From contig JAHKAJ010000015.1 in assembly GCA_018826075.1 (NCBI GenBank), forward strand, positions 15,091 to 79,090: 64,000 nucleotides of DNA. The letters run 5' to 3'. This document shows positions 30,592 through 54,516 of this stretch, piece after piece. The stretch is from Candidatus Omnitrophota bacterium. Lineage in GTDB: Bacteria > Omnitrophota > Gorgyraeia > Duberdicusellales > 4484-171. Position 1 is the stretch's first letter; every line of letters begins with the position of its first letter. The notes beneath the pieces are model-generated. The model did not search any database, had not been told where the DNA came from, and worked only from the letters and a program-made list of their open reading frames with translations. Made by a program: the position numbers and the translations under genes.

Positions 30592-32037
30592 TCAAGCCTT
30601 AGCCAGGAGCTGCTTAAACAAACGTACAAATATGGGTAACTCCTTATGGATCGACCTGATCGGATCAATCTTTACCTTCATACAATAACCTAACCACAAA
30701 TAAAATAATACTCGATATAGCCCTGAGAAAGGTAACCAACTTAAAAACTCGGCTGCCGGCCGTAAAATCGGAAAGCGGATAATAATCCCGGCTATCTTTT
30801 GTAAATTTTCAATCTTTCTTTTTTCTTCGGCTGAAGAAAAGGTAAATATTGAAACTCTTTTATTCGACTCAAGAAAATTTTCTGAATTTTTCAGATAGCC
30901 ATTTTTTATGCCATATTTCATAATGTCCGTACCGGGATAAGGATAAATCAACCCGCAAGAAGCAAATGTCGGGCGTAATTTAATATTTAAATCGATTGTC
31001 TCTAAATCAATTCTGAAAGCATCGGGGGCTGGTATACCCATAATATTAAAAGTAACTATTCTGATTCCCTGCCGATGCAATACATCTGCAGCTTTAACAA
31101 TTTGATCATTAGTTATGTTTCGCTGTAATATTTCATTAGCAACCTTTTCGTTACCGCACTCAACCCCCATCCAAACATAACTCAATCCGGCATCGCGCAA
31201 CTGAGCAATGTCCTGCTCTCGAACTAAATCTGGACGTATTTCAATTGAGAAAGGGAGAGCTATCTTTTCCTTATATCTTTTGCAAAACTCATCCAGCCAG
31301 CCTTTAGGCTTCAAAACAAAATTGCTATCACAAAAAGAAACTTGAGTTAAGGGATAATAATCACGTACTTTCTCGATTTCCTCAATCACCCGCTCTGGAG
31401 ATACGCAACGGACCACATTGCCTTTGCCTTTATAGAATTCATTAAATTGTTTATTAAAACAATAACTACACTCAAAGGGACAACCGCGTGAGGCAAAAAA
31501 AGCCTTAGATCTTAAGTTTTTCATGTTGGGATCAGCATCATAAATAATCTTTCGATCGGGCAAGGGTAGCGTGCTTAAATCAGCTTCCAGGGGCCGCAAA
31601 GGATTTTTTATAATATTACCGTTATATTTTAGGTGAAAATTGAGGGTATTCTGATAATCTCCCCCCTTCTCCAGGCTCCGACAGAACTCAGGAAAGGCCT
31701 CATCGCCTTCACCAATACAAATAGCATCAACCCCATCTTCCTTAATCACCTGCGGAAAAAACATGGCATGCGGCCCGCCGAATACGGCTAGAAAATTAAA
31801 ATTTTTCTTGAGAGTCCGATTAACTTCCAAGAGTGTCGAATGTTCACCAGTCATGGCGCTATAGCCTACTACCTGAGGTGAAAATTCCCGCATAATTTCT
31901 TCTATTGTCGTCAAACCGCTAACACTTACTACCGCTAAACGAGTTTCGTGTCCGCAGCGATTCAAGCTTGCGCTAAGAGCCATGACGCCTATACGTTCAT
32001 AAGCAATTACATCCTTGATTATAAATAGTATTTTCAT
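30592..32037 (-). CDS. B12-binding radical-SAM enzyme (class B).
   Basis: N-terminal cobalamin-binding Rossmann domain and SRGCPFECSYC (CxxxCxxC). Confidence 0.75.
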   Translation of the reverse strand: MKILFIIKDVIAYERIGVMALSASLNRCGHETRLAVVSVSGLTTIEEIMREFSPQVVGYSAMTGEHSTLLEVNRTLKKNFNFLAVFGGPHAMFFPQVIKEDGVDAICIGEGDEAFPEFCRSLEKGGDYQNTLNFHLKYNGNIIKNPLRPLEADLSTLPLPDRKIIYDADPNMKNLRSKAFFASRGCPFECSYCFNKQFNEFYKGKGNVVRCVSPERVIEEIEKVRDYYPLTQVSFCDSNFVLKPKGWLDEFCKRYKEKIALPFSIEIRPDLVREQDIAQLRDAGLSYVWMGVECGNEKVANEILQRNITNDQIVKAADVLHRQGIRIVTFNIMGIPAPDAFRIDLETIDLNIKLRPTFASCGLIYPYPGTDIMKYGIKNGYLKNSENFLESNKRVSIFTFSSAEEKRKIENLQKIAGIIIRFPILRPAAEFLSWLPFSGLYRVLFYLWLGYCMKVKIDPIRSIHKELPIFVRLFKQLLAKA

Positions 32038-32038
32038 G

Positions 32039-33022
32039 CTAAACCTCTATTGCCTCGTCAGCTTTAAAACACCTCTTGGCAACCCGGCCAATAACTCTAT
32101 CCCACTCTATCGGACTAATTCCGACGCCGGGACGTTTAGCGGTGATATTTTCTTGACTAAGGATTTCCCCTTTTTTAATTTCCCTTGAAGCAACAATACT
32201 CTTTCTAACTACTTCTCTGTTATGTAGCTCTGAGGGGGATACTCTCTTGATTCCATCACCAAGAGCATTCTTTATTTTTCTTATTGACTCTACCATTGCT
32301 TTGAGTTCGCTTGGCTCCAAAGAGGCCTGATGATCAGGTCCTTCCATGGTTCGATCGAGAGTAAAGTGCTTCTCGACCACCTCTGCTCCAAGAGCTACTG
32401 CTGCAATAGGAACTTCTATCCCCAAGGTATGGTCAGAATATCCAACTTTAACCCTTAAGGTATTCTTGATCGTTAACATTGCTAATAAATTAACGTCTTT
32501 AAAAGGTGTGGGATACTCTGTGTTGCAATGCAAAACTGTAATCTTTTCCTTGGCTGTTCCCGAAGCAACTAAAATATCTAAAGCTTTACTTATTTCTTCT
32601 AACTCGGCCATGCCGGTTGAAATTATTATTTTCTTGTTTAAGCTCCCTACTTTTCGCAAATAAGGAAGATTGGTTATTTCTCCGGAAGGTATTTTAAAAA
32701 TTTCTAAACCTAAACTTTTAAGAAAGTCTATACTTTCTAAATCAAAGGGGGTTGATAAAAATATAACTCCTTTTTCTCTGCAATAATCATTAAGCTCTAT
32801 GTGATCTTGCCGACTCAACTCTAATTTCTTTAGCATATCAAGTTGTAAAGATTGCTGACTAACCACTTTCTCAGCACTGAATGTCTGAAACTTTACTGCG
32901 TCAACGCCAGCTTCGTAAGCTAAATCTACCAGCTGTTTAGCAATCTCGATGTCGCCGTTATGATTTACGCCGACCTCAGCAATAATGAATATCCTGCTGG
33001 TATTTTTCACCATGCAGTCCAA
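32039..33022 (-). CDS. Nonulosonic acid synthase (NeuB/LegI/PseI family) with a SAF domain.
   Basis: IFIIAEVGVNHNGDIEIAKQLVDLAYEAGVDAVKFQTF; C-terminal SAF domain; 327 aa. Confidence 0.8.
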   Translation of the reverse strand: MDCMVKNTSRIFIIAEVGVNHNGDIEIAKQLVDLAYEAGVDAVKFQTFSAEKVVSQQSLQLDMLKKLELSRQDHIELNDYCREKGVIFLSTPFDLESIDFLKSLGLEIFKIPSGEITNLPYLRKVGSLNKKIIISTGMAELEEISKALDILVASGTAKEKITVLHCNTEYPTPFKDVNLLAMLTIKNTLRVKVGYSDHTLGIEVPIAAVALGAEVVEKHFTLDRTMEGPDHQASLEPSELKAMVESIRKIKNALGDGIKRVSPSELHNREVVRKSIVASREIKKGEILSQENITAKRPGVGISPIEWDRVIGRVAKRCFKADEAIEV

Positions 33023-36498: not shown

Positions 36499-36507
36499 CT
36501 TATCTCT

Positions 36508-37497
36508 TTAGGTAACTGGACAATAATTATCTTCTTTTTTTAACAAACGATTAAAATGCACAAGCAACTCTCCAAGAATAAACTCATGACTCAAAAAACA
36601 CTGCGACAGTGTAGGCAATTGGCAGTTGTCTTTAGCTAATATATCGGCAACAAATGTTTTACTCATATGGCTTACATTCCAATCTTCATCTATGGCAATA
36701 TTGTGCCATTGCCAATCTGATGAAAGATGACTTTCATAGGCAAATTTTTGAAAATGATCAATAATAAACCTGCAGTTTGGCGTATGAATAGTAGTGTGGT
36801 CAGGACTCTTGTTGTCACCGGCAAATGAAATCATGAATTTGCTTCCTTTGTCAGAATAACCGCAGATACTTCCGCTTAGATCACAAACTTGCGGCCCACG
36901 CTTTGAAGAATGAACTATTGGGTCTATCTGGGAACCGAAACTCTTAAGCTGTTTCGACTCATCAAAAAATACAAATAAATCAACTACATGGACACCTATA
37001 TTAGCTAAGCCGTGATTGCCTCCGATTACACTAAACAACAACGGTTCATTCACATTTAGGCACGATTTAATATACTCATGAATAGCATAAGCCCGACTCT
37101 TACAGTTAACCCAAACTAAAAGGTCATTAATCTTACAAAATGTCATTAAATCCTGATAATCTTCTACTGATTGTGACACTATCTTTTCTATTAAAAACTT
37201 TTTATAGCCAAGCTTGCTAGCAGCCTGCTTAACCATATCGCAGCGAATATCAGCCTGGGTTGCGACAATGCAAAGATCACCGTTAGCTGACTCATCATTT
37301 AACTCACTAAACCAACTAAACTTTATTGCCTTGTTTAAATCTGATAACTCTTGCAAGCGCAATTTGCCGACTTCAGCTGCCTTAGGATTAGAGTCAACAA
37401 CATGGACTTCGCCAACCGCACCAAGATAAGCTACTGCCTGCAGGTGCCGACTGCCGAGTGCTCCACAACCAATAATAAGAACTTTATATTGCTTCAT
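36508..37497 (-). CDS. Gfo/Idh/MocA-like oxidoreductase.
   Basis: KVLIIGCGALGSRH. The start is refined to the ATG at 37495..37497, which forms an ATGA overlap with the upstream stop; the track's start is a TTG. Confidence 0.55.
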   Translation of the reverse strand: MKQYKVLIIGCGALGSRHLQAVAYLGAVGEVHVVDSNPKAAEVGKLRLQELSDLNKAIKFSWFSELNDESANGDLCIVATQADIRCDMVKQAASKLGYKKFLIEKIVSQSVEDYQDLMTFCKINDLLVWVNCKSRAYAIHEYIKSCLNVNEPLLFSVIGGNHGLANIGVHVVDLFVFFDESKQLKSFGSQIDPIVHSSKRGPQVCDLSGSICGYSDKGSKFMISFAGDNKSPDHTTIHTPNCRFIIDHFQKFAYESHLSSDWQWHNIAIDEDWNVSHMSKTFVADILAKDNCQLPTLSQCFLSHEFILGELLVHFNRLLKKEDNYCPVT

Positions 37498-38306
37498 TGT
37501 ATTTTCTGCTGGCCGGTCGGCACCCCCCAAAACTCACAACCATTACACAAGGCCACTTCTTTTCTTCTTCCTTCTATATGTTTCTTTAACCATTGCCCTC
37601 TCTGAGAACCATTCCAAATATCTGCTAAAGCTGTTGAGTTGCAATCTCCAATAATACCTAAACCTTTAGGATCAAACCTTACACATATAGAAACTTTTCC
37701 ATCTCTGCGGATAACCATATGATTAAGAAAGTCTAAGCAAACTCCTATCTCAGGTATAGTTGGATTCTTTTTATAGCTAAAACTACCCATAGGAGAATGC
37801 AGTATGCGAGTCGCGACTATACATCCTAAATCCTTATACCGGGTTAAATCCATCTCGCCTAAACAACGTATTATGACATTAGGCTTTCTTGGTCCTTTGA
37901 TTTTTAGAAATTCTTTAATCAACTTATATTGTTCTTCTTGATCTTTATCCTTCTCAAATGTTGAAATAGTCAAAGTATCTAAATTATCAATAATTTCATT
38001 GGCTTTTTCGACTATTAATTTGCCGTTAGTATCCATGCATCTAATTTGCCGAGTAAACAAGCTCGCTGCTTCTTTAAATCTAGGATAAAGAAGCGGCTCG
38101 CCATTATTATGAAGTTGAACCACAATTGAATCCGGTAATTGCTTGGCAATTGATTCAACCAGTTCGAACTCCATATCGCCATAGTTAAGGGCGATCTCTG
38201 GATAATCCCGATCAACCTTTCTGCGTCCGCACATCCAACAATCTTTGTTGCAGCGATTGGTTAACTCTATATTTACAGTCGTCAAATTATTAAAACATTT
38301 ATCCAT
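37494..38306 (-). CDS. Small radical-SAM enzyme with a C-terminal Cys-rich (twitch/SPASM-like) region.
   Basis: TNRCNKDCWMCGRR (CxxxCxxC) and C-terminal ...CNGCEFWG. Confidence 0.65.
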   Translation of the reverse strand: MDKCFNNLTTVNIELTNRCNKDCWMCGRRKVDRDYPEIALNYGDMEFELVESIAKQLPDSIVVQLHNNGEPLLYPRFKEAASLFTRQIRCMDTNGKLIVEKANEIIDNLDTLTISTFEKDKDQEEQYKLIKEFLKIKGPRKPNVIIRCLGEMDLTRYKDLGCIVATRILHSPMGSFSYKKNPTIPEIGVCLDFLNHMVIRRDGKVSICVRFDPKGLGIIGDCNSTALADIWNGSQRGQWLKKHIEGRRKEVALCNGCEFWGVPTGQQKIQ

Positions 38307-38317
38307 TTTCTATATCT

Positions 38318-39178: not shown

Positions 39179-39180
39179 AA

Positions 39181-41041: not shown

Positions 41042-41802
41042 TAACCAAAAATCCTCCTTGCAAGATTTGGATCCTTGCCAATTTGATATTCTAGATAACC
41101 AAAGTCTTCCGGAATGTCGACTTCAAAAATCTGTGGCGTAACATAAGCGATAACCCGATCGCCGTGTATCTTTTTAGCCTCTCTAACATAAGCACTCTTA
41201 ATTATGTCAACATAGCCATTAGCTTGATAGGTTGTTGCAAACTCCTGACGAGGACGATTGGCCGCTTCTATGTCTAAAGATCCTGAACCGATAGATTTCA
41301 AATATCCTTCCTCTATATCAAAAGCTTTATAAACTGATTCGGTCATCGCATGCACTGAACGCAAAGCAGTGACCGACTCTTCAGCTTCCTTGATCCGCGA
41401 AATCGCCCCTTCGATATAACTTATCTCACGAAACGGTGTTGTCGGACGTAGATGAACTAGATATTTAGGCTGATACCCTTGATTGTCCTGCAGCCAATCT
41501 AAAAGATGTTTAATAAACTCATAGTCGGTACTGCTGTCGCCGGATATCTCCTTGGGCCGCAAAAAAGGAACGTCAGCCTTGTATTTCCGGGCGATATCAG
41601 CGTAATGTTCGGAATCGGTCGAGACAATTACTCTATCGATATTAGCTGTTGCGGTTGCCGCCGCAATGGTATAAGCAAACAAAGGCCGGCCGCCTAATAA
41701 TTTGATATTCTTATCGATCACAGATCTTGAACCGGATCTTGCCGGAATTACAGCAACCACTTCTTCCATAGTTAACAAACCTCTTGTATGCTTGACTCCC
41801 AA
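41041..41802 (-). CDS. NeuA-like nonulosonate cytidylyltransferase (CTP_transf_3 family).
   Basis: VAVIPARSGSRSVIDKNIKLLGGRPLFAYTI. Confidence 0.65.
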   Translation of the reverse strand: MGVKHTRGLLTMEEVVAVIPARSGSRSVIDKNIKLLGGRPLFAYTIAAATATANIDRVIVSTDSEHYADIARKYKADVPFLRPKEISGDSSTDYEFIKHLLDWLQDNQGYQPKYLVHLRPTTPFREISYIEGAISRIKEAEESVTALRSVHAMTESVYKAFDIEEGYLKSIGSGSLDIEAANRPRQEFATTYQANGYVDIIKSAYVREAKKIHGDRVIAYVTPQIFEVDIPEDFGYLEYQIGKDPNLARRIFG

Positions 41803-42632
41803 CGAATATGAGCCCTTAATTTTTGAGCAATTGGCACTTCTTTGCTGTGCATGGTTAGTTTTCCTGTACCCATTGCAGCTTCTATTTTTCGCACGGCTCC
41901 CACTAATGTCCGCAAACCACCTGGTTCAACTGAGGCTGCTTGATCTGAACCATACATCGCCCGATCTAAAGTAATATGCCTCTCCAATGAAGAAATCCCT
42001 AAAGAAGCCGCTGCATAAGACACCGCTAAACCAACTTCATGTCCGCTATAGCCAACCTTGCACTGATATAAATTACGTAAAGCTTCTATCCGTTTCAAAT
42101 TAGCATCTTCATCAGCCATCGGGTAAGTAGAAATGCAATGCATTAGCTCAAAAGAACACTTAGCTTTCTTGAAAATTTCTACCGCTCGGTCAATGTGTTT
42201 TTTTTCACTCATGCCGGTCGCAATAAAAGTATGCTTACCTTCTGAAGCAACTAGCTCAAGTAGCTCTTCATAAACAATCATTGCCGAAGCGATCTTGTTA
42301 TATTTTAAATTAAATTGTTGCAAAAACTTCTGACTTTCAATATCCCAAGCTGAAGCAAACCATTCAATGCTCTTTTCTTTACAATATTGATCGATCTCTT
42401 GATATTCTTTGAGTCCAAATTCAAGGCCTTCCTTTTGAGCCCGTTGGGTATCGCCCCAGGGACTTTGACGCGGTGAATCTAGAAACTGTTTTGAATAAAC
42501 TAAATCAACTGTCCGCTTCTGAAACTTAACAACATCGCATCCGGCATCTTTAGCTGTATCAATTAACTGCTTAGCAATGCCTACATCTCCGTTATGATTA
42601 ATCCCGACTTCAGCAACAATAAATATTCCCAT
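41772..42632 (-). CDS. NeuB-like synthase TIM-barrel domain with no apparent C-terminal SAF domain.
   Basis: IFIVAEVGINHNGDVGIAKQLIDTAKDAGCDVVKFQ. At 286 aa it is about 40-60 aa shorter than canonical NeuB. Confidence 0.55.
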   Translation of the reverse strand: MGIFIVAEVGINHNGDVGIAKQLIDTAKDAGCDVVKFQKRTVDLVYSKQFLDSPRQSPWGDTQRAQKEGLEFGLKEYQEIDQYCKEKSIEWFASAWDIESQKFLQQFNLKYNKIASAMIVYEELLELVASEGKHTFIATGMSEKKHIDRAVEIFKKAKCSFELMHCISTYPMADEDANLKRIEALRNLYQCKVGYSGHEVGLAVSYAAASLGISSLERHITLDRAMYGSDQAASVEPGGLRTLVGAVRKIEAAMGTGKLTMHSKEVPIAQKLRAHIRWESSIQEVC

Positions 42633-42652
42633 TTTTTCTCCTTGGTTAAAGT

Positions 42653-43942: not shown

Positions 43943-45765
43943 CTATAATCACTCCCTAAGGCCTGTAAACAAACAAGTCTATGATATACTCCTTTCTGTT
44001 CAAGGAGCTCCTGATGAGTTCCCTGCTGAACAAGGCAGCCGCCGCTAACAACAAATATTCGGTCAGCATCTAAAACCGTGGAAAGACGATGAGCTATAGT
44101 AATAACCGTTCTTCCTTTAGCGATATAATCTAAAGCCTGCTGAACTATCCGCTCTGACTCTGTGTCTAGAGATGAGGTTGCTTCATCAAAAACAAGAATC
44201 TCAGGCTCAGTTAAGATAGCCCTAGCAATTGCGATCCGCTGCCTTTGGCCTCCCGATAAACGCACGCCTCTTTCACCAAGCAAGGTATCATAGCCCTTAG
44301 GCAGTTCCTTTATAAACTCAGAAACATGGGCCCGTTGGGCGGCTGTCTCTATCTCCTCTTTGCTGGCTCCAGGTTTAGCAAAGGCAATGTTAGCCTGAAC
44401 TGTATCATTAAATAAAAAAGTGTCTTGAGAAACAACTCCGATTGACCTACGCCAAAAATTAAGATCCAGCTCTCGCAAGTCAACACCATCAATAAGAATC
44501 TGTCCCTTTTGGGGATCATAAAAACGCAATAGAAGTTCTACTATCGTTGATTTGCCGCCGCCAGAAGGGCCAACAATGCCAACTTTCAATCCTTTAGTAA
44601 TCGACAAAGACACATCGCTCAATACTACATTCTCACCACTATTGTATTGAAAACTAAGATCTTTTATCTCTATTTCCTTTTTTAAGCCGGAGAAACATTT
44701 GCTACCATTAGGAATGTAGAGCGATTCTTTTTCCTGAATAAATTGATGAATGCGATTCAAGAAAGGCCAATAGCCAATAATTGAAACTCGTATTGAATTA
44801 AAAGCATTTGCCGAAGGTAGAATCCGGAAAAATATAAAAAGAAAGACTAGAAGGACCTGGATCGAAGACTCACCGTAATGCTGCAAAGCAAATGATCCAG
44901 CAATCATAACCAAAGCTAAACTGCTGACAGCTATAAATTCAAAAAAAGGCTTAACTAGATCTTTTGCCTTAACCAAACTAAAAACCTTTTTTCTATATTC
45001 TTCTGCATCTTTATCGAACCTATTGATAGTATCATTCTCACGATTAAACAAATGAATGGTCTTCATGCCAGTTAAGGCGTCAAGCAAAGTACTAGTTAAA
45101 TTTTTAACCGCTAAATCGGAAGCCTTACCGGATGCTGCTGCCCGGCGACTTAAGCCTTTAAGGATCGACGAAGCTAATACAACTAGAACAACAGCAAGGA
45201 TTGTCATCTTCCAAGATAAAACAAATAACATTGAAAGAAGCAACAAAATAGTAAGCAGCTTAGGAACAATATTTCCTATATTACCTATCAACACTCCTAC
45301 ATGATTAGCATTAGTTATAATCAGAGATTGAATATGGCCCAATCGTTGCAAGTTAAAGTAACCTATTTTAAATTTCATCAATTGTTCAAAGCAAAGCATG
45401 CGATAGTATTTTATGGAATTCTGCTGCAGGCGATTTACTAAAATATTCCCCATATAGGTTAAAAAACTCTTAAGCGAAATTATAATAATCATAAACGCGG
45501 CAATGGTTTGAATTTTTTGTTTGAGTCCCATATCAACAAAAAAAGAAGAAACTAGACTAAAAGGATATGGCAACGGCACAATCTTTGGCCCAGCGGCGCC
45601 ATCTAACAAAGGAATAACTATAGTTACTCCAAAGCCCTCAGTTAAAGATACACCAATTCCAAAAAAGGCGATAAGAATAACTATGCCTTTAAACCGTTTT
45701 AACAACTGCACGAGCTGTTTTGTATTATCTTTAACTAACAGCTCTTTATGTAACTGCTCATCCAT
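43939..45765 (-). CDS. Fused TMD-NBD ABC exporter (MsbA/PglK-like flippase type).
   Basis: Six N-terminal TM helices, Walker A (GPSGGGKST), signature (LSGGQRQR) and Walker B (ILVFDEATS). Confidence 0.85.
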   Translation of the reverse strand: MDEQLHKELLVKDNTKQLVQLLKRFKGIVILIAFFGIGVSLTEGFGVTIVIPLLDGAAGPKIVPLPYPFSLVSSFFVDMGLKQKIQTIAAFMIIIISLKSFLTYMGNILVNRLQQNSIKYYRMLCFEQLMKFKIGYFNLQRLGHIQSLIITNANHVGVLIGNIGNIVPKLLTILLLLSMLFVLSWKMTILAVVLVVLASSILKGLSRRAAASGKASDLAVKNLTSTLLDALTGMKTIHLFNRENDTINRFDKDAEEYRKKVFSLVKAKDLVKPFFEFIAVSSLALVMIAGSFALQHYGESSIQVLLVFLFIFFRILPSANAFNSIRVSIIGYWPFLNRIHQFIQEKESLYIPNGSKCFSGLKKEIEIKDLSFQYNSGENVVLSDVSLSITKGLKVGIVGPSGGGKSTIVELLLRFYDPQKGQILIDGVDLRELDLNFWRRSIGVVSQDTFLFNDTVQANIAFAKPGASKEEIETAAQRAHVSEFIKELPKGYDTLLGERGVRLSGGQRQRIAIARAILTEPEILVFDEATSSLDTESERIVQQALDYIAKGRTVITIAHRLSTVLDADRIFVVSGGCLVQQGTHQELLEQKGVYHRLVCLQALGSDYR

Positions 45766-46825
45766 ATCGCGCCTCTTGACATTTCTTAGAAATAGCTGTC
45801 ACTGCCTTATATATAGGTAAAAACCCAGGATAGTTTACTGACTTTTTATTTAACAATGAACTCAAACTCACTTCTTTTGAGGAAAACAACTGCTTGGTTT
45901 TCTTTAAAATCCCATAGGCTCCGGGAATGCACTTACTTATCTTCTTTAAGCGTTCTTTTGGGGAAAAAACAGCATAGCGCTGCTTAAACTTATCTGACAG
46001 GCAACCATTCAGATAGCTCCAAAAAGCCCTTTTAGATATAGCCTGAGCCTGCTCGCGAGTAATACTATCCTCCTGAATAAGGCCTTCAACCAAAGAATCA
46101 TGAAATATTTTATAAGCTTCATTCCAGTCAGGATTAGTTATCCAATCATAAATATCACTATGAAATGCACGCCCCTGATGGTGCTGTCTCACTAAATACA
46201 GGTCATCATAATGCTTTATTTTTCCATGAACAACAGAAAGGCAACATGGCAATAGCTCCTCCATAAATGCCCGCTCAGAGAGTTGTTTAACATTCTGATA
46301 TAACTTTTTCCATGTTTCCGTGCGCTGAACTGAAAAAACAGTAACACTGTAATTATTTAAATGGCCTATTAACCTCTCGCTTGCTGTTGATTCCTCTACT
46401 GCCCGCTGAGGATACCTCCCTATATTCAAAAACTCTCCATAAACACCGGAATTCTTAAGTGAAAAAACCAAAGCGCTACCATGAGCGGCACTATATTCTG
46501 GATTGCTCTCTAGAAAATCAATACACTTTTCCAACGTTTTGGTAATAATGAAGTCATCGTCAAGAATGATTGCTGCATAAGGAGTATCTAACTTGTCGAC
46601 CAGGGCCTTCAAGCACATTGAAATCGATAGATTAGGATACTCAAGGTGTCTAATGTTTAACTTACCGTCTAGGCTCTTAATAAATTCTTTAGTTCGTTCC
46701 AGATGAGTCTGGTCACTGGAATCTCCTATACAAATTGAATAGGGATAGTCTGTGTCAGCGTAATATTGCAGTAATCTAATTAAAAAATCAGATCGGTCCA
46801 TTGTCGGAATCATCAAGGTAATCAT
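45758..46825 (-). CDS. GT2-like glycosyltransferase.
   Basis: LMIPTMDRSDFL...AAIILDDDF (DXD). Confidence 0.5.
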   Translation of the reverse strand: MITLMIPTMDRSDFLIRLLQYYADTDYPYSICIGDSSDQTHLERTKEFIKSLDGKLNIRHLEYPNLSISMCLKALVDKLDTPYAAIILDDDFIITKTLEKCIDFLESNPEYSAAHGSALVFSLKNSGVYGEFLNIGRYPQRAVEESTASERLIGHLNNYSVTVFSVQRTETWKKLYQNVKQLSERAFMEELLPCCLSVVHGKIKHYDDLYLVRQHHQGRAFHSDIYDWITNPDWNEAYKIFHDSLVEGLIQEDSITREQAQAISKRAFWSYLNGCLSDKFKQRYAVFSPKERLKKISKCIPGAYGILKKTKQLFSSKEVSLSSLLNKKSVNYPGFLPIYKAVTAISKKCQEARYG

Positions 46826-46849
46826 AACTATCTTTTTATAGCCCTGCGT

Positions 46850-48055
46850 TTAACCTTCTTGCTTATTATTTATAAACTCTTCGACGATTTTTAAAAAATA
46901 ATCGAGATGCTCTTTGCCTAAATCCTGATGCACCCCAATATGCAGACCATTGTTACCTACATACTCAGCATTTGGGAAATCACCTAACTTATAGCCTAAG
47001 AATTCGAATCCCGGACATTGAGTCGGCATTGAAGAAAAAAGACTTCGTGTGTCAACGCCTTTTTCTTCAAGAAAAATCACCAATTGTTCACGACTGAATT
47101 TAGCCTTTTCCTGGACAATAATCGGAAAGGCATGTGGACCTATCTTTTCATAAGCGGCCTCTTCTATAGTTACAAGGTCAGCTTCGAACTTTTTAAAATT
47201 ATCAATTAAATATTTTAAGTTTTCTCTTCTTTTATCTAATATGTCCTGATAACTATCGATATTGCCAAGACCAATAGCCGCTTCCATTTCGTTCATCTTG
47301 CAGGAATAGCCAATCCGCTCAAAGCTAAATCGAATATCTCGCTTTTGACCATATTGAAACCGCTTAGCGCAATATTTAGATTGGGTATTAAGTTGGCAAA
47401 TTTTGCATTTGCAGGCTCGACCATGGCAACGCAACGATCTTAAAATTTCAGCAAATTCAGAGTTATCAGTAGTTATGATTCCGCCTTCAACCGTAGTGAT
47501 AATGTGGGCTACATAAAGGCTAAAAGCTCCCATATCAGCCAAGGCCCCAGCTTTTTTGCCCTTATATTCGGCACCATGAGCTTCAGCAGCATCTTCGATA
47601 ACATAAAGATTGTATTTTTTGGCTATTAGTTTAATCTCATCCATCGCTGCTGGTTTACCCATTAAATGAACCGGCATAATTGCGCATGTGTTATCAGTAA
47701 TTGCTGCCTCTATTTTTTTAGGATCGATATTTAAAGTTTTCCGATCAATATCGATAAATGCCGGCCTAAACCCGGCTTGCAACACTGCGTTTCCAGTAGC
47801 TACAAAAGAAAGTGCCGGAACTATTACCTGATCGTCTTTTTGAGCCCCAAAATCATACAATGTTGCTAAGGCTAAAGCATCGGCATCAGTGCCACTGGAT
47901 ACAGCGACTGCTTCTTTAACCCCGATTAGCTGAGCGAATCTCTCTTCCAATTCTCTTACATATTTACCGGAAGAAAGACGATTAGAATCTAAACACTGAT
48001 TAACCAATTCTTTTGCTTTAGTAGTAACTGAAATAGTACCAAAAGGTATTCTCAT
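46850..48055 (-). CDS. DegT/DnrJ/EryC1-family PLP sugar aminotransferase.
   Basis: VSSGTDALALA and the family-wide layout. The start is refined to the ATG at 48053..48055, which forms an ATGA overlap and has an AAGGGAG SD. Confidence 0.8.
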   Translation of the reverse strand: MRIPFGTISVTTKAKELVNQCLDSNRLSSGKYVRELEERFAQLIGVKEAVAVSSGTDADALALATLYDFGAQKDDQVIVPALSFVATGNAVLQAGFRPAFIDIDRKTLNIDPKKIEAAITDNTCAIMPVHLMGKPAAMDEIKLIAKKYNLYVIEDAAEAHGAEYKGKKAGALADMGAFSLYVAHIITTVEGGIITTDNSEFAEILRSLRCHGRACKCKICQLNTQSKYCAKRFQYGQKRDIRFSFERIGYSCKMNEMEAAIGLGNIDSYQDILDKRRENLKYLIDNFKKFEADLVTIEEAAYEKIGPHAFPIIVQEKAKFSREQLVIFLEEKGVDTRSLFSSMPTQCPGFEFLGYKLGDFPNAEYVGNNGLHIGVHQDLGKEHLDYFLKIVEEFINNKQEG

Positions 48056-49482
48056 TTTTTCAACTCCCTTTGGAAAAGACATCTTTTAATTTTGTCAGTC
48101 AATCTAAATAACATAAGAATCGCCCCTAAAATTCCACTTTTACGAATCATCGGTAAAATTCGCCAAGGAGCAGAATAGATACTTAAAAATCCGTCATTTT
48201 GTAGCTGAAGTAACTTTTCGGCCGACAACTCGTTCACCTCCATAACCGCTGAACCGTAACGCCTGTACCTTGAATAGTCTTCAGTCAATAATCTTAATCC
48301 ATAATCTCCTCTTCTAGCCATATCATAAAGCTCAGTGCCAGGGTAGGGAGTAGCAATGCTAAAATTGGCCTGCTGAATATCTCGGGCCTGACGCAAAAAG
48401 CTAAGTGTTTTGCCTACGGTTTCAGCTGTCTCCCCGGGTAAACCAAGCATAATCGAATTCAAAGTCTCAATGCCATATTTATTAGTAATCCGATTGGCTT
48501 TTTCATAACTATCTAAAGGAACTTCTTTTTTAATAATTTTGCGAATTTCAGGATCGACAGTTTCTAAACCAAAAGAAATTCTAATTAAACCGCTGTTAGC
48601 CATAACTTCTACCAACTCTTCATCAATCAGATTTGCTCGAGTGCTGCCGTCAAAAGTTATTTTCAAGTTCTCTTTAATTATTGCCTGACAAATTGCTAAA
48701 ATATAGTTTCGATCCAAAGTAAGAGTATCATCAAGAAAAGTAAAATGCCGAGTATTAAAATTATAAATCACTGACTTAATCTCAGCGATGACTGAATCTA
48801 CAGATCTTCTTCTCACCTGACTTCCAAATACTTTAGTGCTACAAAATATGCATTTAAAAGGGCAACCTCTTGTAGTCATGATAGTAGTGAAATTCTTTCT
48901 GCCCCTTAAAGTTCCGATATTATATTTTTCTCTGTTTAGCAGGTGTCGGGCCGGATAAGGTATTGAATCGATGTCCTTTACTGGTTCTGAACTGCCGGTA
49001 GAAATAGTTTTGCCGTCTTTCCGATAAATAATGCCTTTAATACCGGAAATGTCTTCATCATTTTCATAACGGTTCAAAAAATTAACCCATGACTCCTCAG
49101 CTTCGCCAATAAACGCATAGTCAAAACAAGCTGGGAAATCTTTTTCCTGTAATATAGTTATATGGGCCCCTCCGATAACTATCGGGATATTAGAAAACCT
49201 CCGTTTAAAAGCCTTGGCATGCTCAACCACTATATGGAAAAAAGGAGTAGTTGCGGTCATGCCGATAATATCCGGATTGAAATTTTCTATTTCTTTGGTA
49301 ATTTTTTCTAAAGAAATATTTTCAGCCTCAGCATCGATAATTTTCACTGTATGACCCAGTTTTTCAGCCAAAGCAGCGATGTAAGCTAAATTTAACGGCG
49401 GCCAAATAGATGCTTTTTTGGCAAAATGCGAAAATATTCCGTATTCAGCCGTCCAGCGTGGAAATAGCAATAGGATCTTCAT
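48052..49482 (-). CDS. B12-binding radical-SAM enzyme (class B).
   Basis: N-terminal B12-binding domain and TRGCPFKCIFC. Confidence 0.75.
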   Translation of the reverse strand: MKILLLFPRWTAEYGIFSHFAKKASIWPPLNLAYIAALAEKLGHTVKIIDAEAENISLEKITKEIENFNPDIIGMTATTPFFHIVVEHAKAFKRRFSNIPIVIGGAHITILQEKDFPACFDYAFIGEAEESWVNFLNRYENDEDISGIKGIIYRKDGKTISTGSSEPVKDIDSIPYPARHLLNREKYNIGTLRGRKNFTTIMTTRGCPFKCIFCSTKVFGSQVRRRSVDSVIAEIKSVIYNFNTRHFTFLDDTLTLDRNYILAICQAIIKENLKITFDGSTRANLIDEELVEVMANSGLIRISFGLETVDPEIRKIIKKEVPLDSYEKANRITNKYGIETLNSIMLGLPGETAETVGKTLSFLRQARDIQQANFSIATPYPGTELYDMARRGDYGLRLLTEDYSRYRRYGSAVMEVNELSAEKLLQLQNDGFLSIYSAPWRILPMIRKSGILGAILMLFRLTDKIKRCLFQRELKK

Positions 49483-49483
49483 C

Positions 49484-50185
49484 TTAATTTTTCACTACCA
49501 AACTCTTCTTTGCTTGTTCGTATCTCTCCGGGGTACCGATATCAACTAATTGCTGTTCAGTTACATAGCCAAAGCAATTTTTGTTTTTAAGTTTAGGGAA
49601 TAAATCATATTCCAAAGAAAATATCCCTTTAGGCATATAGGAAAAAATAGTTTTTTCCATAAAATATATACCTGCATTCATAAAGCCTTGTTTTTGAGAG
49701 TCGGCCCGCTCAGAAAAATCTTTTATCTGACCAAAATCATCCAAAGTAACTATTCCGCAATCTCCTGACTCTCTTGCCTTAACTAGAACTAAAGTAGTAA
49801 AAGCTTTTTTACTCTGATGAAAGTTGAAAACCTTATTAAAATCCAAATCACAAAAAGAATCACCATTTATAGCTAAAAATAAATCACTGGTAACTAACTT
49901 CTCGGCCTTCTTTAAGCCACCGCCAGTGCCCAAAGCGCTCTCTTCTTCAGAAAAAACTATATCCTCCCGGTCTTTAAAATACTCTATGACCTCTTCTCTT
50001 TTATAGCCAACACTTAAAATAAACCGCTTAAAACTAAATCTCTTAAGATTCGTAATTAAAAGATCCAAAAAAGGTTTGCCATTAATATCCGCTAAAACTT
50101 TAGGCTTATCAGCTAAAACTGATTGTAATCTTTCACCCTTTCCACCGCAAAGGATAACTACATCTATATTTGTTAAATCACTCAT
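49484..50185 (-). CDS. Sugar-1-phosphate nucleotidyltransferase (HddC/NTP_transferase-like).
   Basis: VVILCGGKGERL...KPKVL. Confidence 0.7.
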   Translation of the reverse strand: MSDLTNIDVVILCGGKGERLQSVLADKPKVLADINGKPFLDLLITNLKRFSFKRFILSVGYKREEVIEYFKDREDIVFSEEESALGTGGGLKKAEKLVTSDLFLAINGDSFCDLDFNKVFNFHQSKKAFTTLVLVKARESGDCGIVTLDDFGQIKDFSERADSQKQGFMNAGIYFMEKTIFSYMPKGIFSLEYDLFPKLKNKNCFGYVTEQQLVDIGTPERYEQAKKSLVVKN

Positions 50186-51246
50186 TGCTTAATTATGGTT
50201 GAATTGCTAGCTATCTTTTCAGCCGCTAAAACATCCTTGTCAACATCTGCCCAAGACTGATGATCAGGAGCATAGTAAATTATCTGACTACCTAAAGTAT
50301 CAAACTTAAAAGGAACATAGAGTAACTCACCCAAAGCCTTTCTTACCTGAGGCTGAAGCTCAGGTTTAACAAAAAATAAAATAAACCCTCCACCACCGGC
50401 TCCCAAAAGTTTTCCGCCGCTGGCTCCGGCTCTGATAGCGCTTTCATATATTTCATCAATAACCGGAGTTGAGATCTTAGAAGTTAAACTCCTTTTTAAC
50501 ATCCAATTTTCATTAAGTAACTTACCAAACTCATCATAGCTATCTTTGCTTTGATTTAAAATATCCATTGCTGCAGCCACCATCTCATGCATAGCTGAAA
50601 GTTCCTTCTTTTTATTGGCCGTTTTTCTTATTTGCTCTTCGGCAATTTCAGAAGCAGTTCTTGAAAAACCAGTAAAAAACAACATTAGATGCTTTTGAAA
50701 ATGTTGCATTTTCTCAAGATCTACAGTTACCGGCTGAACTTCAATGTTATGGCTGTTAAAGGTAATTTCATTAAATCCGCCGAACGCGGCGATGGTTTGA
50801 TCTTGTGAACCAACATGCTCTTTGATTCGCTCCTGCTCAATGTGAATAGCTTCAAGCGCCAGCTGCTTCTTAGTTATCATATTGCCTTTTAAAGCATATA
50901 AAGCATTAAGCAAGCCTACGGTAAAAGATGAACTTGAGCCAAGACCGGTTCTAGCCGGCAAATCGCCATCATGATGTATTTCTACCCCCTTATCTAAATT
51001 CATAAAACCTAAACATTCCCTAACTGAGGGGTGTTTTATCTGAGAAAGCTTTTTTACTGCCTCGCGTTCTGAATAGACTATTCTATATTTATAACCAAAA
51101 AATGGCGGAAGGTACCGACAAGTTACATAACAATACTTATTAATTGAAGCTGAAATCACGGAGCCTTCATTTTCCTTATACCAAACCGGGTAATCAGTCC
51201 CTCCGCCAAAAAACGAAATTCTGAATGGAGTTCTGCTTATAATCAT
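50182..51246 (-). CDS. GHMP sugar kinase (HddA-like heptose-7-P kinase).
   Basis: IISRTPFRISFFGGGTDYP; GHMP motif PxGSGLGSSSS, here ARTGLGSSSS. Confidence 0.7.
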   Translation of the reverse strand: MIISRTPFRISFFGGGTDYPVWYKENEGSVISASINKYCYVTCRYLPPFFGYKYRIVYSEREAVKKLSQIKHPSVRECLGFMNLDKGVEIHHDGDLPARTGLGSSSSFTVGLLNALYALKGNMITKKQLALEAIHIEQERIKEHVGSQDQTIAAFGGFNEITFNSHNIEVQPVTVDLEKMQHFQKHLMLFFTGFSRTASEIAEEQIRKTANKKKELSAMHEMVAAAMDILNQSKDSYDEFGKLLNENWMLKRSLTSKISTPVIDEIYESAIRAGASGGKLLGAGGGGFILFFVKPELQPQVRKALGELLYVPFKFDTLGSQIIYYAPDHQSWADVDKDVLAAEKIASNSTIIKQ

Positions 51247-52217
51247 TTTGCCCCCACCATAGCTCTACAAGCTTCTTTAATCCGGTTTAGGATGCTGATT
51301 GTGTCTATCTGATTTATTTTATAGAGATGGTCACGGCCGCCAAGTTCAAAAACATACCTATCTTGGAAACCTAAACCTTTAAAGAAAACATTAGCTTGCC
51401 GATCATTTAAAATATTTAAAATCGCTGAATCCAGCCCGCCTTTTTTAATAAAAGCCTCTTCCAAAGTAATTACATATTTATAGTTCTTTAGAGTTTCAAA
51501 AATCAAATCTTCGTTCAAGGGTTTAATCAAAAGCATATCCAATAATCCGCAGTTAATACCTTGATTGCTAAGCTCCTCCACTACTTCACGAGCCTTGTGG
51601 GTCATGTAGCCGGTTGAAACTAAACAAACATTTTCACCTTTCTTAAGTTCATAAAATCCTCTTTCTAAATCCTCAAAAGTAATCGTATCGTAAATTTGCG
51701 GCAAGGGTTTGGCATCGAGCCGAAAGTATTTTGGTTTTTTAACCTTAAAAGAATATTCAGCCAAAGCCTTAGTTGCTACCCAATCACTGGGAGAAGCCAC
51801 AATAAAGTTAGGTAAAACTCGCATTAAAGCAATGTCCTCAAGACAATGGTGACTGGGTCCGGAGACATCATAACTTATCCCTGAACCAACTCCGACTAAA
51901 TTTATATTTAACTCCTTAGTTTGAGCAAGCAAAGATAAGTTATTTCTATTCTGTTCAAAAGCCCGCATAATTAAAAACGGTGCAATAGCATAAGCATAGA
52001 CGATGTAACCTTCCAAAGCCAACCCGGTTGAGATGTTAATTAAATTCTGCTCGGCAATTCCCACATTGATAAACCGGTCACTAAAATCTGCTCTCACTTT
52101 ATCGAGAACCGACGAACCAAAATCAGCCGATAAAAAGAAAATACTCTCATCTTTGGTCATTCGCTGATAAATCTGCTCAATAAAAGCATCACGCATTGTC
52201 TTCTTGCTAGGATTCAT
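51243..52217 (-). CDS. Transketolase, C-terminal (pyrimidine-binding) subunit.
   Basis: FLSADFGSS...INVGIAEQNLI. Confidence 0.75.
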   Translation of the reverse strand: MNPSKKTMRDAFIEQIYQRMTKDESIFFLSADFGSSVLDKVRADFSDRFINVGIAEQNLINISTGLALEGYIVYAYAIAPFLIMRAFEQNRNNLSLLAQTKELNINLVGVGSGISYDVSGPSHHCLEDIALMRVLPNFIVASPSDWVATKALAEYSFKVKKPKYFRLDAKPLPQIYDTITFEDLERGFYELKKGENVCLVSTGYMTHKAREVVEELSNQGINCGLLDMLLIKPLNEDLIFETLKNYKYVITLEEAFIKKGGLDSAILNILNDRQANVFFKGLGFQDRYVFELGGRDHLYKINQIDTISILNRIKEACRAMVGAK

Positions 52218-53029
52218 AAGCTCGATTCCTCAACTAGAGCATCAACCTCTTGGGCCGAAAGAGACCGAACATGGCAAAGACTATCATTTTCTAATTTAGG
52301 GACCCCTTTTCCTTTTTTGGTTTGAGCAATAATGAGCTTAGGCTTAGAGTTTCTGTCTTTTTTGGCTTTCAGCAAAACTTCCTGCATTACCGCTGGGTTA
52401 TGACCGTCAACTTCTTGAGTCATCCAACCAAAAGCCTTAAATTTATCGGCTAAGGGAGTTAAATCAAGTATTTTACTGCAATAATCAAGCATGCAAATCT
52501 TATTGTTATCAATAATTAAAATTAGATTATCCAACTTATGATAGCCGGCAAACATAACTGCCTCCCAAACTGAACCTTCATAAAGCTCTCCATCACCAAG
52601 AACAACAAAAACGCTCTCAAGCCTATTCTTTCTCTTTAAACCTATAGCTACTCCTGAAGCCACGCCTAGGCCGTGGCCTAGGGAACCATTTATAGTTTCA
52701 TAGCCAGGAATCAGGGTGTCGGGGATACCACCCAAGAACGAGCCTTCCTTGCAAACAGTTAAAAGTTCTTTTTTATCAAAAAATCCTAAATCAGCTAAAA
52801 TCGGATATAAACAGATTGAACCATGGCCTTTGCTGACTATCAACCGGTCTCTGTCTTCGGCCCTAAGGTTTGTCGGGTCATATTTCAATACTTTGCCATA
52901 ATACAGAGCCACAAAAAGCTCAACACTGGATAACGAAGAGGCAATCCGGGTCTCAGGAGCTAACTTATGCACCTTTAAAGTTTCTTTACGCACCCAATTA
53001 GACTTTTCAACTAAGAAATTTGGCTGCAT
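52214..53029 (-). CDS. Transketolase, N-terminal (TPP-binding) subunit.
   Basis: GHGSICLYP...LGDGELYEGSVWEA. Confidence 0.75.
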   Translation of the reverse strand: MQPNFLVEKSNWVRKETLKVHKLAPETRIASSLSSVELFVALYYGKVLKYDPTNLRAEDRDRLIVSKGHGSICLYPILADLGFFDKKELLTVCKEGSFLGGIPDTLIPGYETINGSLGHGLGVASGVAIGLKRKNRLESVFVVLGDGELYEGSVWEAVMFAGYHKLDNLILIIDNNKICMLDYCSKILDLTPLADKFKAFGWMTQEVDGHNPAVMQEVLLKAKKDRNSKPKLIIAQTKKGKGVPKLENDSLCHVRSLSAQEVDALVEESSL

Positions 53030-54516
53030 TCTAATGGATCCTCAAACAGCTTCCGGTTTAGTTTATGTTCCAACATCTGCTTTATATGTTCAAGCGTAGG
53101 TTGACCGAATTTTTCCTCAACCATCTTAAGATATCTAGGATTTTTATAATACTCATCAAAGGCCCGGTCTCTAAAACTTAACACCTCTTTGGCCGAAATA
53201 TGCTTAGTAGCCAAAGGAATAGTTTCTCGACTAATCTGTGAATATTCGAGCCAATTAGAAGAAAGTTTAATTCCCTGCTTTAGGGACTCCTGATAAAGCC
53301 TTGAACCAGGATAAGCCATGGTGGTGTAAAAATTAATATATTCGCAATTAAGCTCTTTTGCTAAATCTAAAGTCTCCTGCATTGATTCTAAATCATCATC
53401 GGGAAGGCCAAACATAAAATTACCGATTATGTTAATTCCTGCATCTTTGGTCATTTCAACCACTCTTTTTATTGCCGCCTGATCAAACCTACCCTTGGAA
53501 ACTTCCTCACGCACTTTTCTGCTAGCAGCTTCGATTCCATAAGCTAACCAATTTACTCCGGCTTTTTTTAACTTGTTCAAAATAGCTTCATCAACTGTAT
53601 CAATTCTGGCATAAGCCCAAATATTTAAATCATAGTTACGCTCAATCAATAAATCACAAAATTGGTTAACTCTTTCCTTATTAAGAACAAAAAGTTCATC
53701 AAGAATTTTAAAGTTTTTAACAGCATACTTCTTTACTAAAAAATCTATCTCTTCAACTACTTTTGAAATACTGCGATAACGTATTCCCGGTTGCCCATTG
53801 TACAACGCCCTGATATTGCAATATTTACAGTCAAAAGGACAACCCAAACTAGTATAGATAACTGCATAAGGACTGCGTTGATTGACATGGTCAAAACAAT
53901 GCCAATTGTGAGCACGGTATTTATCCATCGGCAAAAGATCCCAGGCAATAAACCCCAACTCATCTAAATCTTTAATTAAATCTGCCCAACCATTAGCAAT
54001 AACTTTCCCGTTTTTTACATACCAAAGACCTTTAATCAAAAGATCTCCCATTTCCTGATCAGTTTTCAATGTTTTTAAAAGTTCTAAAATCGGATAGAAA
54101 CTTTCTCCCCGACAAACAAAATCAACTGCTTCCTCCTTGAGAGTTTTCTCAGGCAAAGCTGAAACGTGAATACCATAGGCGACGGTCTTACCCTTAAGCT
54201 GCTTTGCTTTAAGCAGTTTTAAAACCTGACTGGCTGCGGCCATCTTAGGTGTTGATGCCGCCGATGGATTAGCCCCTATTGTACCAACGCCAATCAAAAT
54301 TGGATCGCAAGCAACGATTCTTTCAACGATCTCTTGAGTACTTAACTTTTCTGCATCAGCATCTATAATTGCGACTTCAAATCCCTTGTCGCGAATAAAA
54401 CTGGCTAACAAACCTGTCCATACTGGAGGTTCGATTCCAGAAAAAACCTCACTCAGTTTTCCATATGTGACTTTTTTATTGCCGGGATTTATTAGTAAAA
54501 GGTCTGGCTTATTCAT
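53011..54516 (-). CDS. B12-binding radical-SAM enzyme (class B).
   Basis: B12-binding N-terminal domain and SLGCPFDCKYCN. Confidence 0.75.
   Translation of the reverse strand: MNKPDLLLINPGNKKVTYGKLSEVFSGIEPPVWTGLLASFIRDKGFEVAIIDADAEKLSTQEIVERIVACDPILIGVGTIGANPSAASTPKMAAASQVLKLLKAKQLKGKTVAYGIHVSALPEKTLKEEAVDFVCRGESFYPILELLKTLKTDQEMGDLLIKGLWYVKNGKVIANGWADLIKDLDELGFIAWDLLPMDKYRAHNWHCFDHVNQRSPYAVIYTSLGCPFDCKYCNIRALYNGQPGIRYRSISKVVEEIDFLVKKYAVKNFKILDELFVLNKERVNQFCDLLIERNYDLNIWAYARIDTVDEAILNKLKKAGVNWLAYGIEAASRKVREEVSKGRFDQAAIKRVVEMTKDAGINIIGNFMFGLPDDDLESMQETLDLAKELNCEYINFYTTMAYPGSRLYQESLKQGIKLSSNWLEYSQISRETIPLATKHISAKEVLSFRDRAFDEYYKNPRYLKMVEEKFGQPTLEHIKQMLEHKLNRKLFEDPLECSQIS

Follow-up and report, generated by a model that had tools for sequence, protein, structure and literature searches.

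The stretch of DNA analysed here (the window) comprises 64,000 nucleotides (nt) from a Candidatus Omnitrophota bacterium (assembly GCA_018826075.1, contig JAHKAJ010000015.1, positions 15,091 to 79,090). About 63 open reading frames (ORFs) follow one another on its minus strand in a nearly unbroken run, with a G+C content of 0.35-0.43. Three of them, designated rSAM-1, rSAM-2 and rSAM-3, encode proteins that combine a B12-binding domain with a radical S-adenosylmethionine (SAM) domain, and they are the subject of this report. The gaps between genes at 25967-60208 range only from -49 to +39 nt, so this part of the window can be regarded as an operon-like array. Within sugar operons, the rSAM genes are translationally coupled to their neighbours across gaps of -31 to +14 nt. 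rSAM-1 is located one nt downstream of a NeuB gene and 14 nt upstream of a NeuC gene. rSAM-2 and rSAM-3 belong to a series that, in order of transcription from 59834 to 46850, encodes RmlA, RmlC, an intein-containing RmlB, a GDP-L-fucose synthase (Fcl)-like enzyme, a short-chain dehydrogenase/reductase (SDR), rSAM-3, a split transketolase, a GHMP kinase, an HddC-like nucleotidyltransferase, rSAM-2 and a DegT-family protein. The positions of these and other genes are given in Table 1.

Three unnamed families of radical SAM proteins

All three proteins pass the Pfam gathering cut-offs for B12-binding (PF02310; 58.4, 73.7 and 56.5 bits for rSAM-1, rSAM-2 and rSAM-3, respectively; cut-off 32.1) and for Radical_SAM (PF04055; 69.6, 97.3 and 69.9 bits; cut-off 29.5). 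Their cluster motifs are CPFECSYC at residue 186, CPFKCIFC at residue 207 and CPFDCKYC at residue 226. The coordinates, the domain pairing around a CxxxCxxC core and the motifs proposed in an earlier reading of the DNA from its letters and ORFs (the sequence-only reading) are exact. Alignments of 23 sequences were made for each family. Conservation of the cysteine motif, a check suggested in the same reading, is complete, and the three cluster cysteines are invariant in each alignment (C186/C190/C193, C207/C211/C214 and C226/C230/C233 in rSAM-1, rSAM-2 and rSAM-3, respectively). A GG(P)H motif is invariant in the rSAM-1 and rSAM-2 families, and the corresponding motif of rSAM-3 is G-I-H. The rSAM-3 family harbors three additional invariant cysteines, C207, C287 and C391, together with an invariant AHNWHCF sequence just upstream of the cluster motif. 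Judging from this conservation, these residues may form an auxiliary metal or substrate site.

The three proteins are mutually 23-25% identical and are distant paralogues. A protein 100% identical to rSAM-2 is encoded in the Candidatus Omnitrophica metagenome-assembled genome GCA_018827675.1. Among the best 120 database clusters, all are at least 58% identical to the query for rSAM-2 and rSAM-3, and at least 44% for rSAM-1. The source databases name these homologues generically or wrongly, as "radical SAM", "YgiQ" or "BchE". None of the three proteins falls into a named NCBIfam family, the best matches being to BchE, HpnJ, ladderane-type lipid, ApyD, Sden_1168 P-methylase and AprD4 models. BchE and HpnJ are the top families for rSAM-2 and rSAM-3, whose length these models cover nearly in full, B12 domain included; for rSAM-1, HpnJ comes first and BchE third. 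Scores against the BchE model (TIGR02026) are 84, 209 and 161 bits for rSAM-1, rSAM-2 and rSAM-3, below the cut-off of 481, and those against HpnJ (TIGR03471; 95-209 bits, cut-off 578) and HpnR (TIGR04367; 48-118 bits, cut-off 650) are likewise below. The P-methylase models PhpK (TIGR04479, cut-off 600) and Sden_1168 (NF038361, cut-off 575) give 47-134 bits. A role as phosphonate P-methylase was rejected because the window ORFs yielded no phosphoenolpyruvate mutase. Each of the three families forms a tight clade of its own in a neighbour-joining tree. Membership of a BchE- or HpnR-type clade, a possibility raised in the sequence-only reading, is contradicted by scores below all cut-offs and, with regard to BchE and HpnJ, by this tree. 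The three proteins are confirmed as genuine class-B-type radical SAM proteins, drawn from three separate, widespread and uncharacterised orthologue groups.

The matches to BchE and HpnJ bear on one alternative, in which the rSAM proteins would catalyse a non-methylating, cobalamin-dependent rearrangement or C-C bond formation, such as an HpnJ/OxsB-like ring contraction or a BchE-like oxidative cyclisation, with a carbocyclic or rearranged sugar as the product. The leading position of the BchE and HpnJ models speaks for it, as does OxsB, which aligns with the rSAM-2 and rSAM-3 profiles over both domains, if weakly (E 1e-10 to 1e-15). HpnJ acts on a glucosamine moiety. It is listed among the non-methylating members in a 2026 review of B12 radical SAM enzymes. 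However, the scores are far under the cut-offs, the identity to annotated BchE (Thiodictyon) is 22-26% and that to annotated HpnJ (Paraburkholderia) 20-26%, the clades are separate, and no hopanoid (hpn) or photosynthesis (bch, puh) genes occur among the window ORFs. We consider such a rearrangement quite improbable.

Table 1. Genes of the window discussed in the text, in window coordinates. The last column gives, for the partners of rSAM-3, their occurrence among eleven loci (the window and ten other loci with an rSAM-3 orthologue) and their identity to the window copy. aa, amino acids; ThDP, thiamine diphosphate; NDP, nucleoside diphosphate; GDP, guanosine diphosphate.
Gene product	Position	Strand	Remarks	rSAM-3 loci
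rSAM-1	30592-32037	minus	481 aa, ATG start; B12-binding and radical SAM domains; between NeuC/LegG and NeuB/LegI	
rSAM-2	48052-49482	minus	476 aa, ATG start; B12-binding and radical SAM domains; 31-nt overlap with the downstream His-type DegT gene	
rSAM-3	53011-54516	minus	501 aa, ATG start; B12-binding and radical SAM domains; cassette core	
DegT-family protein, putative NDP-sugar 3-dehydratase of ColD/E1/SpnQ type	46850-48082	minus	His for catalytic Lys; Cys-rich insert	7/11; 26-66%
Sugar-1-phosphate nucleotidyltransferase, HddC-like, probably GDP-forming	49484-50185	minus	PF00483; NF049965 144 bits, below cut-off	8/11; 29-50%
GHMP-family sugar kinase, HddA-like or fucokinase-like	50182-51246	minus	PF00288 and PF08544; NF049969 143 bits, below cut-off	8/11; 50-70%
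Split transketolase-type ThDP enzyme	51243-53029	minus	N half 52214-53029, C half 51243-52217; PF00456, PF02779, PF02780	7/11; transketolase-type in 5, E1-type in 2
Extended SDR epimerase/reductase (Epim_a)	54526-55458	minus	PF01370; without TDE dehydratase motif; directly upstream of rSAM-3	6/11; 56-81%
Fcl-like 3,5-epimerase/4-reductase	55455-56423	minus	NF047922 449 bits, cut-off 500	6/11; 42-50%
NeuC/LegG-type hydrolysing 2-epimerase	29396-30577	minus	TIGR03568 492 bits, cut-off 236	
NeuB/LegI-type nonulosonic acid synthase	32039-33022	minus	TIGR03569 477 bits, cut-off 400	
LegC aminotransferase	22693-23880	minus	TIGR04181 470 bits, cut-off 420	
LegB-like 4,6-dehydratase	23883-24884	minus	TIGR04180 433 bits, below cut-off 475	
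Fourth radical SAM protein	37494-38306	minus	270 aa; CNKDCWMC at residue 19 and PF13186 SPASM; without B12 domain	
Second, short NeuB-family synthase	41772-42632	minus	PF03102; TIGR03569 238 bits, below cut-off; without SAF domain	
ABC exporter	43939-45765	minus	PF00005 and PF00664; directly downstream of the cassette, with the TIGR04440 glycosyltransferase	
Glycosyltransferase	45758-46825	minus	TIGR04440 181 bits, cut-off 70; directly downstream of the cassette	

Gene neighbourhoods in Bacteria and Archaea

Six rSAM-2 loci with long flanks were compared, from Methanoperedens, Methanoregula, an unclassified archaeon, Elusimicrobia, Magnetobacteriaceae and Desulfovibrionaceae. At all six, the rSAM-2 orthologue (57-63% identity) lies beside an rSAM-3 orthologue (47-61%). 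rSAM-3 is also found without rSAM-2, for example in Azospirillum lipoferum 4B (plasmid p6; AZOLI_RS29160), Solidesulfovibrio magneticus RS-1 (pDMC1; DMR_RS21980), A. ramasamyi and A. argentinense. The same partner genes accompany rSAM-3 at many of these loci (Table 1, last column), and in Azospirillum and S. magneticus the gene beside rSAM-3 is annotated as a GDP-L-fucose synthase. The archaeal cassettes add GmhA-like SIS and GmhB-like HAD genes and a short NeuB gene, to whose copies at two loci the second, short NeuB of the window is 71-72% identical. rSAM-3, often together with rSAM-2, appears to be the radical part of a horizontally mobile cassette common to Bacteria and Archaea, which we hold to be moderately probable as a component of the overall explanation given below. 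When genome contigs were scanned with the rSAM-2 profile, most matches were paralogues (30-43% identity) and only about five were orthologues; a metagenome scan with rSAM-1 gave a similar result, so large-sample co-occurrence statistics were not possible. The plasmid collection contained no rSAM-2 orthologue, its best matches being bchE genes at 26-29% identity. Searches with the window proteins using tblastn and phmmer are insensitive at distant loci, where a missing match is weak evidence.

The DegT-family protein encoded downstream of rSAM-2 contains the motif AFSLYVAH-IITTVEGG, with a His at the position of the Schiff-base Lys of aminotransferases. This His is kept in the cassette orthologues at six other loci, from both archaea and bacteria; unrelated DegT proteins at the loci compared retain the Lys, as do the two other DegT proteins of the window. 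A Lys-to-His exchange defines the NDP-sugar 3-dehydratases ColD, E1 and SpnQ (PMC8987622). Since His replaces the catalytic Lys, the protein is probably of the 3-dehydratase type and not an aminotransferase. The NCBIfam model that it matches best is RfbH, whose cut-off of 423 bits it does not reach (280 bits). In the window copy there is also a Cys-rich insert (CHGRACKCKIC...C) that recalls the four-Cys [2Fe-2S] motif of E1 and SpnQ. The insert recurs in bacterial orthologues, where its Cys pattern is kept in part, and archaeal orthologues are without it. The sequence-only reading had described the rSAM genes as interleaved with NeuB, transketolase and aminotransferase genes. NeuB, NeuC, split transketolase and DegT genes are indeed present, but the DegT gene beside rSAM-2 encodes this His variant.

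Each half of the split transketolase is matched by NF004559. In S. magneticus and one other rSAM-3 locus, an E1-type ThDP pair takes its place. Because of this replacement, the ThDP enzyme may transfer a C2 unit, as happens in branched-sugar formation, beyond any supply of sedoheptulose-7-phosphate. The same substitution weakens the idea of a transketolase that merely supplies sedoheptulose-7-phosphate to a GDP-heptose route, a route that the GmhA-like and GmhB-like genes of the archaeal cassettes would suit. The cassette is reminiscent of the colitose (ColD/ColC) and yersiniose/ascarylose (E1/E3, YerE/YerF) pathways, with which it shares an NDP-sugar pyrophosphorylase, a His-type 3-dehydratase that would use pyridoxal or pyridoxamine phosphate (PLP/PMP), an Fcl/ColC-like enzyme and a ThDP enzyme; we take the Fcl-like protein to be the counterpart of ColC, and the ThDP enzyme that of YerE. 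By this resemblance, the cassette route would lead to a 3-deoxygenated, possibly C2-branched NDP-sugar. In contrast, the known colitose, yersiniose and ascarylose pathways involve neither a radical SAM protein nor a GHMP kinase, the ThDP enzyme of the cassette is of transketolase or E1 type rather than YerE type, and a 4,6-dehydratase is missing from the cassette itself.

rSAM-1 is found in a different setting. Besides the NeuC, NeuB, LegC and LegB-like genes of Table 1, its surroundings encode a NeuD/PglD-type acetyltransferase (TIGR03570, 207 bits; cut-off 161), a CBS-domain nucleotidyltransferase, WbuX (above its NCBIfam cut-off), HisH, a WbuZ-like amidotransferase (just below the cut-off), a PtmA-like SDR and cytidine monophosphate (CMP)-transferases. 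Judged by these family matches, this is a legionaminic-acid-type pathway with an acetimidoyl option. Compared with the known legionaminic acid pathway (LegB/C/H/G/I/F, PtmE), LegC, NeuD/PglD, NeuC and NeuB are matched above their cut-offs, but here the LegG and LegI equivalents are separated by a B12 radical SAM gene. rSAM-1 orthologues (at least 45% identity) adjoin CMP-transferase and NeuB genes in marine Nitrosopelagicus, and dehydratase, DegT, hexapeptide acetyltransferase and GT2 genes in Magnetospira QH-2 and metagenomic contigs. Relatives at 35-42% identity are mostly without sugar neighbours, so the link to glycans holds for the rSAM-1 orthologue group and not for the wider family. Since the orthologues travel with sets of 4,6-dehydratase, aminotransferase and N-acetyltransferase genes, rSAM-1 probably acts on a 4-amino-4,6-dideoxy-hexosamine or a nonulosonic-acid scaffold.

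These distributions also bear on the host. Nitrosopelagicus, Azospirillum and Magnetospira, organisms that grow with oxygen, have orthologues at about 48% identity, so the anaerobic host expected in the sequence-only reading is not implied. They bear equally on the alternative that the rSAM proteins are unrelated to the glycan and merely co-located with its genes, acting instead on a lipid, a tetrapyrrole, a cofactor or a peptide. The weak matches to class B families of ladderane-type lipids and of ribosomally synthesized and post-translationally modified peptides point that way, as do the 30-43% identical relatives, frequently without sugar genes nearby. Set against this, the rSAM genes are translationally coupled in sugar operons, and the same sugar neighbours recur around their orthologues in archaea and several bacterial phyla, which makes a chance co-location very improbable. 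The link to glycan synthesis is thus well supported for all three unnamed class B families.

Fold, cofactor and candidate chemistry

AlphaFold2 models of rSAM-2 and rSAM-3 have predicted local distance difference test (pLDDT) scores of 89 and 86, respectively. We compared these models with solved structures using Foldseek. Against the solved class B enzymes TsrM, CysS, MgmA, OxsB and TokK, template modelling (TM) scores of 0.6-0.76 were obtained at a probability of 1.00. Taken together with AprD4, every solved class B enzyme is matched, with TM scores of 0.6-0.77 and 14-19% identity; the comparison does not separate methylases from AprD4. In profile searches of the PDB, the N-terminal domains of the rSAM proteins align with those of the cobalamin binders OxsB, TokK, CysS and TsrM. 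The N-terminal domain of rSAM-2 on its own matches 4Q37 and the cobalamin domains of methionine synthase, and not AprD4. According to the 2026 review, AprD4 and ArsL are without cobalamin despite their Rossmann-like domains. Since the N-terminal domains align with cobalamin binders, unlike AprD4, the rSAM proteins are likely to use cobalamin.

The characterised proteins closest in setting are GenK, GenD1, Fms7 and MoeK5. Compared by description and not by sequence, they share the B12-binding and radical SAM architecture, the sugar-pathway setting and the predicted task, the modification of an unactivated sugar carbon. They act on aminoglycoside or phosphoglycolipid antibiotics in actinomycetes, whereas the rSAM genes, from diverse bacteria and archaea, belong to clusters for cell-surface polysaccharides and nonulosonic acids. 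The 2026 review, which names the sugar-acting enzymes GenK, GenD1/GntE, Fms7 and MoeK5, all from antibiotic pathways, makes no mention of sugar, glycan or polysaccharide, and states that most B12 radical SAM groups, the largest included, remain unexplored. Our literature searches returned no paper mentioning both radical SAM and nonulosonic acids, and those combining radical SAM or B12 with nonulosonic acids, heptose, transketolase, GHMP kinase or GDP-fucose synthase returned nothing relevant. Both agree with the sequence-only reading that enzymes of this kind are essentially uncharacterised for cell-surface glycans.

We propose that the three class-B-type radical SAM proteins tailor nucleotide-sugar intermediates of a cell-surface polysaccharide, with methylation as the likeliest chemistry. 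On balance this explanation is favoured, with moderate confidence. Each B12 radical SAM group with a characterised member includes C-methyltransferases according to the 2026 review. Because of this, and because GenK and GenD1 carry out the reaction, cobalamin-dependent radical methylation of an unactivated carbon is the most likely single mechanism, although its chance is close to, or slightly short of, even. In such a mechanism, reductive cleavage of SAM would generate a 5'-deoxyadenosyl radical, which would take a hydrogen atom from an unactivated sugar or N-acyl carbon. Methylcobalamin would then donate a methyl group, by analogy with GenK and GenD1. Both the substrates and the methyl transfer are what we infer from architecture, conservation and gene context.

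The strongest competitor to methylation comes from AprD4 (PDB 6FD2), the apramycin 1,2-diol dehydratase, which acts on a sugar with the reductase AprD3. Like AprD4, one or more of the rSAM proteins, rSAM-3 in particular, might catalyse a radical 1,2-diol dehydration or deoxygenation, with the Epim_a SDR encoded directly upstream of rSAM-3 as an AprD3-like reductase; a deoxy sugar rather than a methylated one would result, without any need for cobalamin. AprD4 is the best PDB sequence match of all three family profiles (E 1e-22 to 3e-32) and the top Foldseek match of the rSAM-3 model (TM 0.70/0.77). The pairing of AprD4 with AprD3 has been described (PMC5461906), and the SDR, which is without the TDE motif, adjoins rSAM-3 at 56-81% identity across domains of life. 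The rest of the cassette would also suit this alternative, being a deoxygenation pathway if judged by its His-type 3-dehydratase. The match to AprD4 nevertheless covers the radical SAM core only, at 17-19% identity, and the AprD4 model NF033070, which also aligns with the core only, gives 65-118 bits against a cut-off of 500. Moreover, the N-terminal domains of the rSAM proteins pass PF02310 and align with cobalamin binders, whereas AprD4 binds no cobalamin. We regard AprD4-like chemistry as unlikely, though it deserves serious consideration.

Besides the sequence and fold matches to AprD4, several points weigh against methylated nucleotide sugars as the products. The best NCBIfam scores of the rSAM proteins are 65-209 bits, with cut-offs of 360-750, and no named class B family is reached. 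Non-methylating members cannot be separated from methylases by sequence, according to the 2026 review. Relatives at 30-43% identity are often found outside glycan settings. The cluster already encodes several class I SAM methyltransferases. The lack of a 4,6-dehydratase in the cassette itself and the ambiguous role of the ThDP enzyme, either sedoheptulose-7-phosphate supply or C2-branch transfer, add uncertainty about the sugar. The chemistry proposed here is a prediction throughout. As to the C-methylated or otherwise radical-modified sugars put forward in the sequence-only reading, the sugar context stands, since orthologues of unrelated bacteria and archaea lie in nucleotide-sugar or glycan clusters; C-methylation specifically is not established, AprD4 being the closest solved relative.

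The wider cluster and its significance

Downstream of 46850, the array continues with the TIGR04440 glycosyltransferase, the ABC exporter, the short NeuB, a CMP-transferase, methyltransferases, the SPASM radical SAM protein and three GFO oxidoreductases. The window contains four CTP_transf_3 genes and two NeuB genes in total. A CxxxCxxC motif is present in 4 of the 63 ORFs, namely the three rSAM proteins and the SPASM protein. The latter is encoded among the methyltransferase and GFO oxidoreductase genes, and a larger Radical_SAM and SPASM gene also occurs in the Magnetospira rSAM-1 cluster. The cluster spans more than 70 kb, with Wzx/Wzy-type and ABC export genes. It runs on past the window start with more glycosyltransferases, a Wzx-type flippase, a B12 radical SAM protein of 427 aa and a second SPASM radical SAM protein. 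This brings the radical SAM genes of the locus to at least four of B12 type and two of SPASM type. Scanning the window for Rfam families and tRNA genes gave no match, cobalamin riboswitches included.

Several other genes of the cluster, all on the minus strand, are unusual in themselves. RmlB, the dTDP-glucose 4,6-dehydratase (56428-58404), is 658 aa long, with an intein of about 336 aa that splits the HLAAE|(S/T)HVD motif. The first intein residue is Ser, its end is ...VVCHN followed by Thr, and LAGLIDADG-like motifs are present; the Pfam Intein_splicing match is weak (30.8 bits, cut-off 35.8). At 2604-4872, an NDP-hexose 2,3-dehydratase (PF03559, 478 bits) adjoins a GFO-type oxidoreductase and RmlD. 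Such 2,6-dideoxy-sugar genes are typical of antibiotic pathways; here they lie within a surface-polysaccharide cluster. The upstream head of the cluster (60352-63024) encodes ATP sulfurylase (sulfate adenylyltransferase), adenosine 5'-phosphosulfate (APS) kinase and an inositol-monophosphatase-family protein, possibly a 3'-phosphoadenosine 5'-phosphate phosphatase. These sulfur-activation genes suggest a sulfated glycan. Genes for APS kinase and sulfotransferase also occur at the Azospirillum rSAM-3 locus.

Grouped at 8702-12917 are genes for a KdsB-like CMP-transferase, a 2-hydroxyacid dehydrogenase, a hexapeptide acetyltransferase, a HAD phosphatase, an HpcH-type aldolase, a transaldolase/FSA and a SIS isomerase, which may constitute an additional ulosonic-acid branch of an unusual kind. 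Midway through the cluster (19789-20928), a 3-dehydroquinate-synthase homologue above the aroB cut-off (318 bits, cut-off 305) lies beside a CMP-transferase and an SDR, and may be a sugar-phosphate cyclase. ORFs of 639, 615 and 737 aa (4902-6821, 14972-16819 and 16823-19036) could not be assigned to a family with confidence; there are weak matches to Wzy_C for the first and to the surface-carbohydrate model TIGR04326 for the second. Unannotated proteins of about 710-720 aa are also found at two rSAM-1 orthologue loci, that of Magnetospira and one more, in which the gene is directly downstream of the radical SAM gene.

What is new here is the recognition of a conserved cross-domain cassette and the correction of one neighbour annotation. 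In archaea and many uncultured phyla, three large, unnamed families are tied to the synthesis of cell-surface glycans, and cultured, genetically accessible hosts (Azospirillum, S. magneticus RS-1 and Magnetospira QH-2) carry orthologues. If our reading of these genes is true, routine labels would be corrected, namely "BchE", "YgiQ" and "radical SAM" for the rSAM proteins and "aminotransferase" for the partner dehydratase. Methylation or radical deoxygenation of nucleotide sugars would imply new bacterial and archaeal monosaccharides, and would provide biocatalysts for sugar C-H functionalisation. We suggest tentatively, as a possibility that we rate below an even chance, that these are the first cobalamin-dependent radical SAM enzymes of primary cell-envelope glycan synthesis. 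The cross-domain cassette would then yield an undescribed C-alkylated, possibly C2-branched, 3-deoxy NDP-sugar. C-methylation of a legionaminic-acid-type nonulosonic acid, or of its diamino-trideoxyhexose precursor, would fall to a separate enzyme. If this is true, the two routes would establish radical chemistry as the source of a new class of surface sugars.

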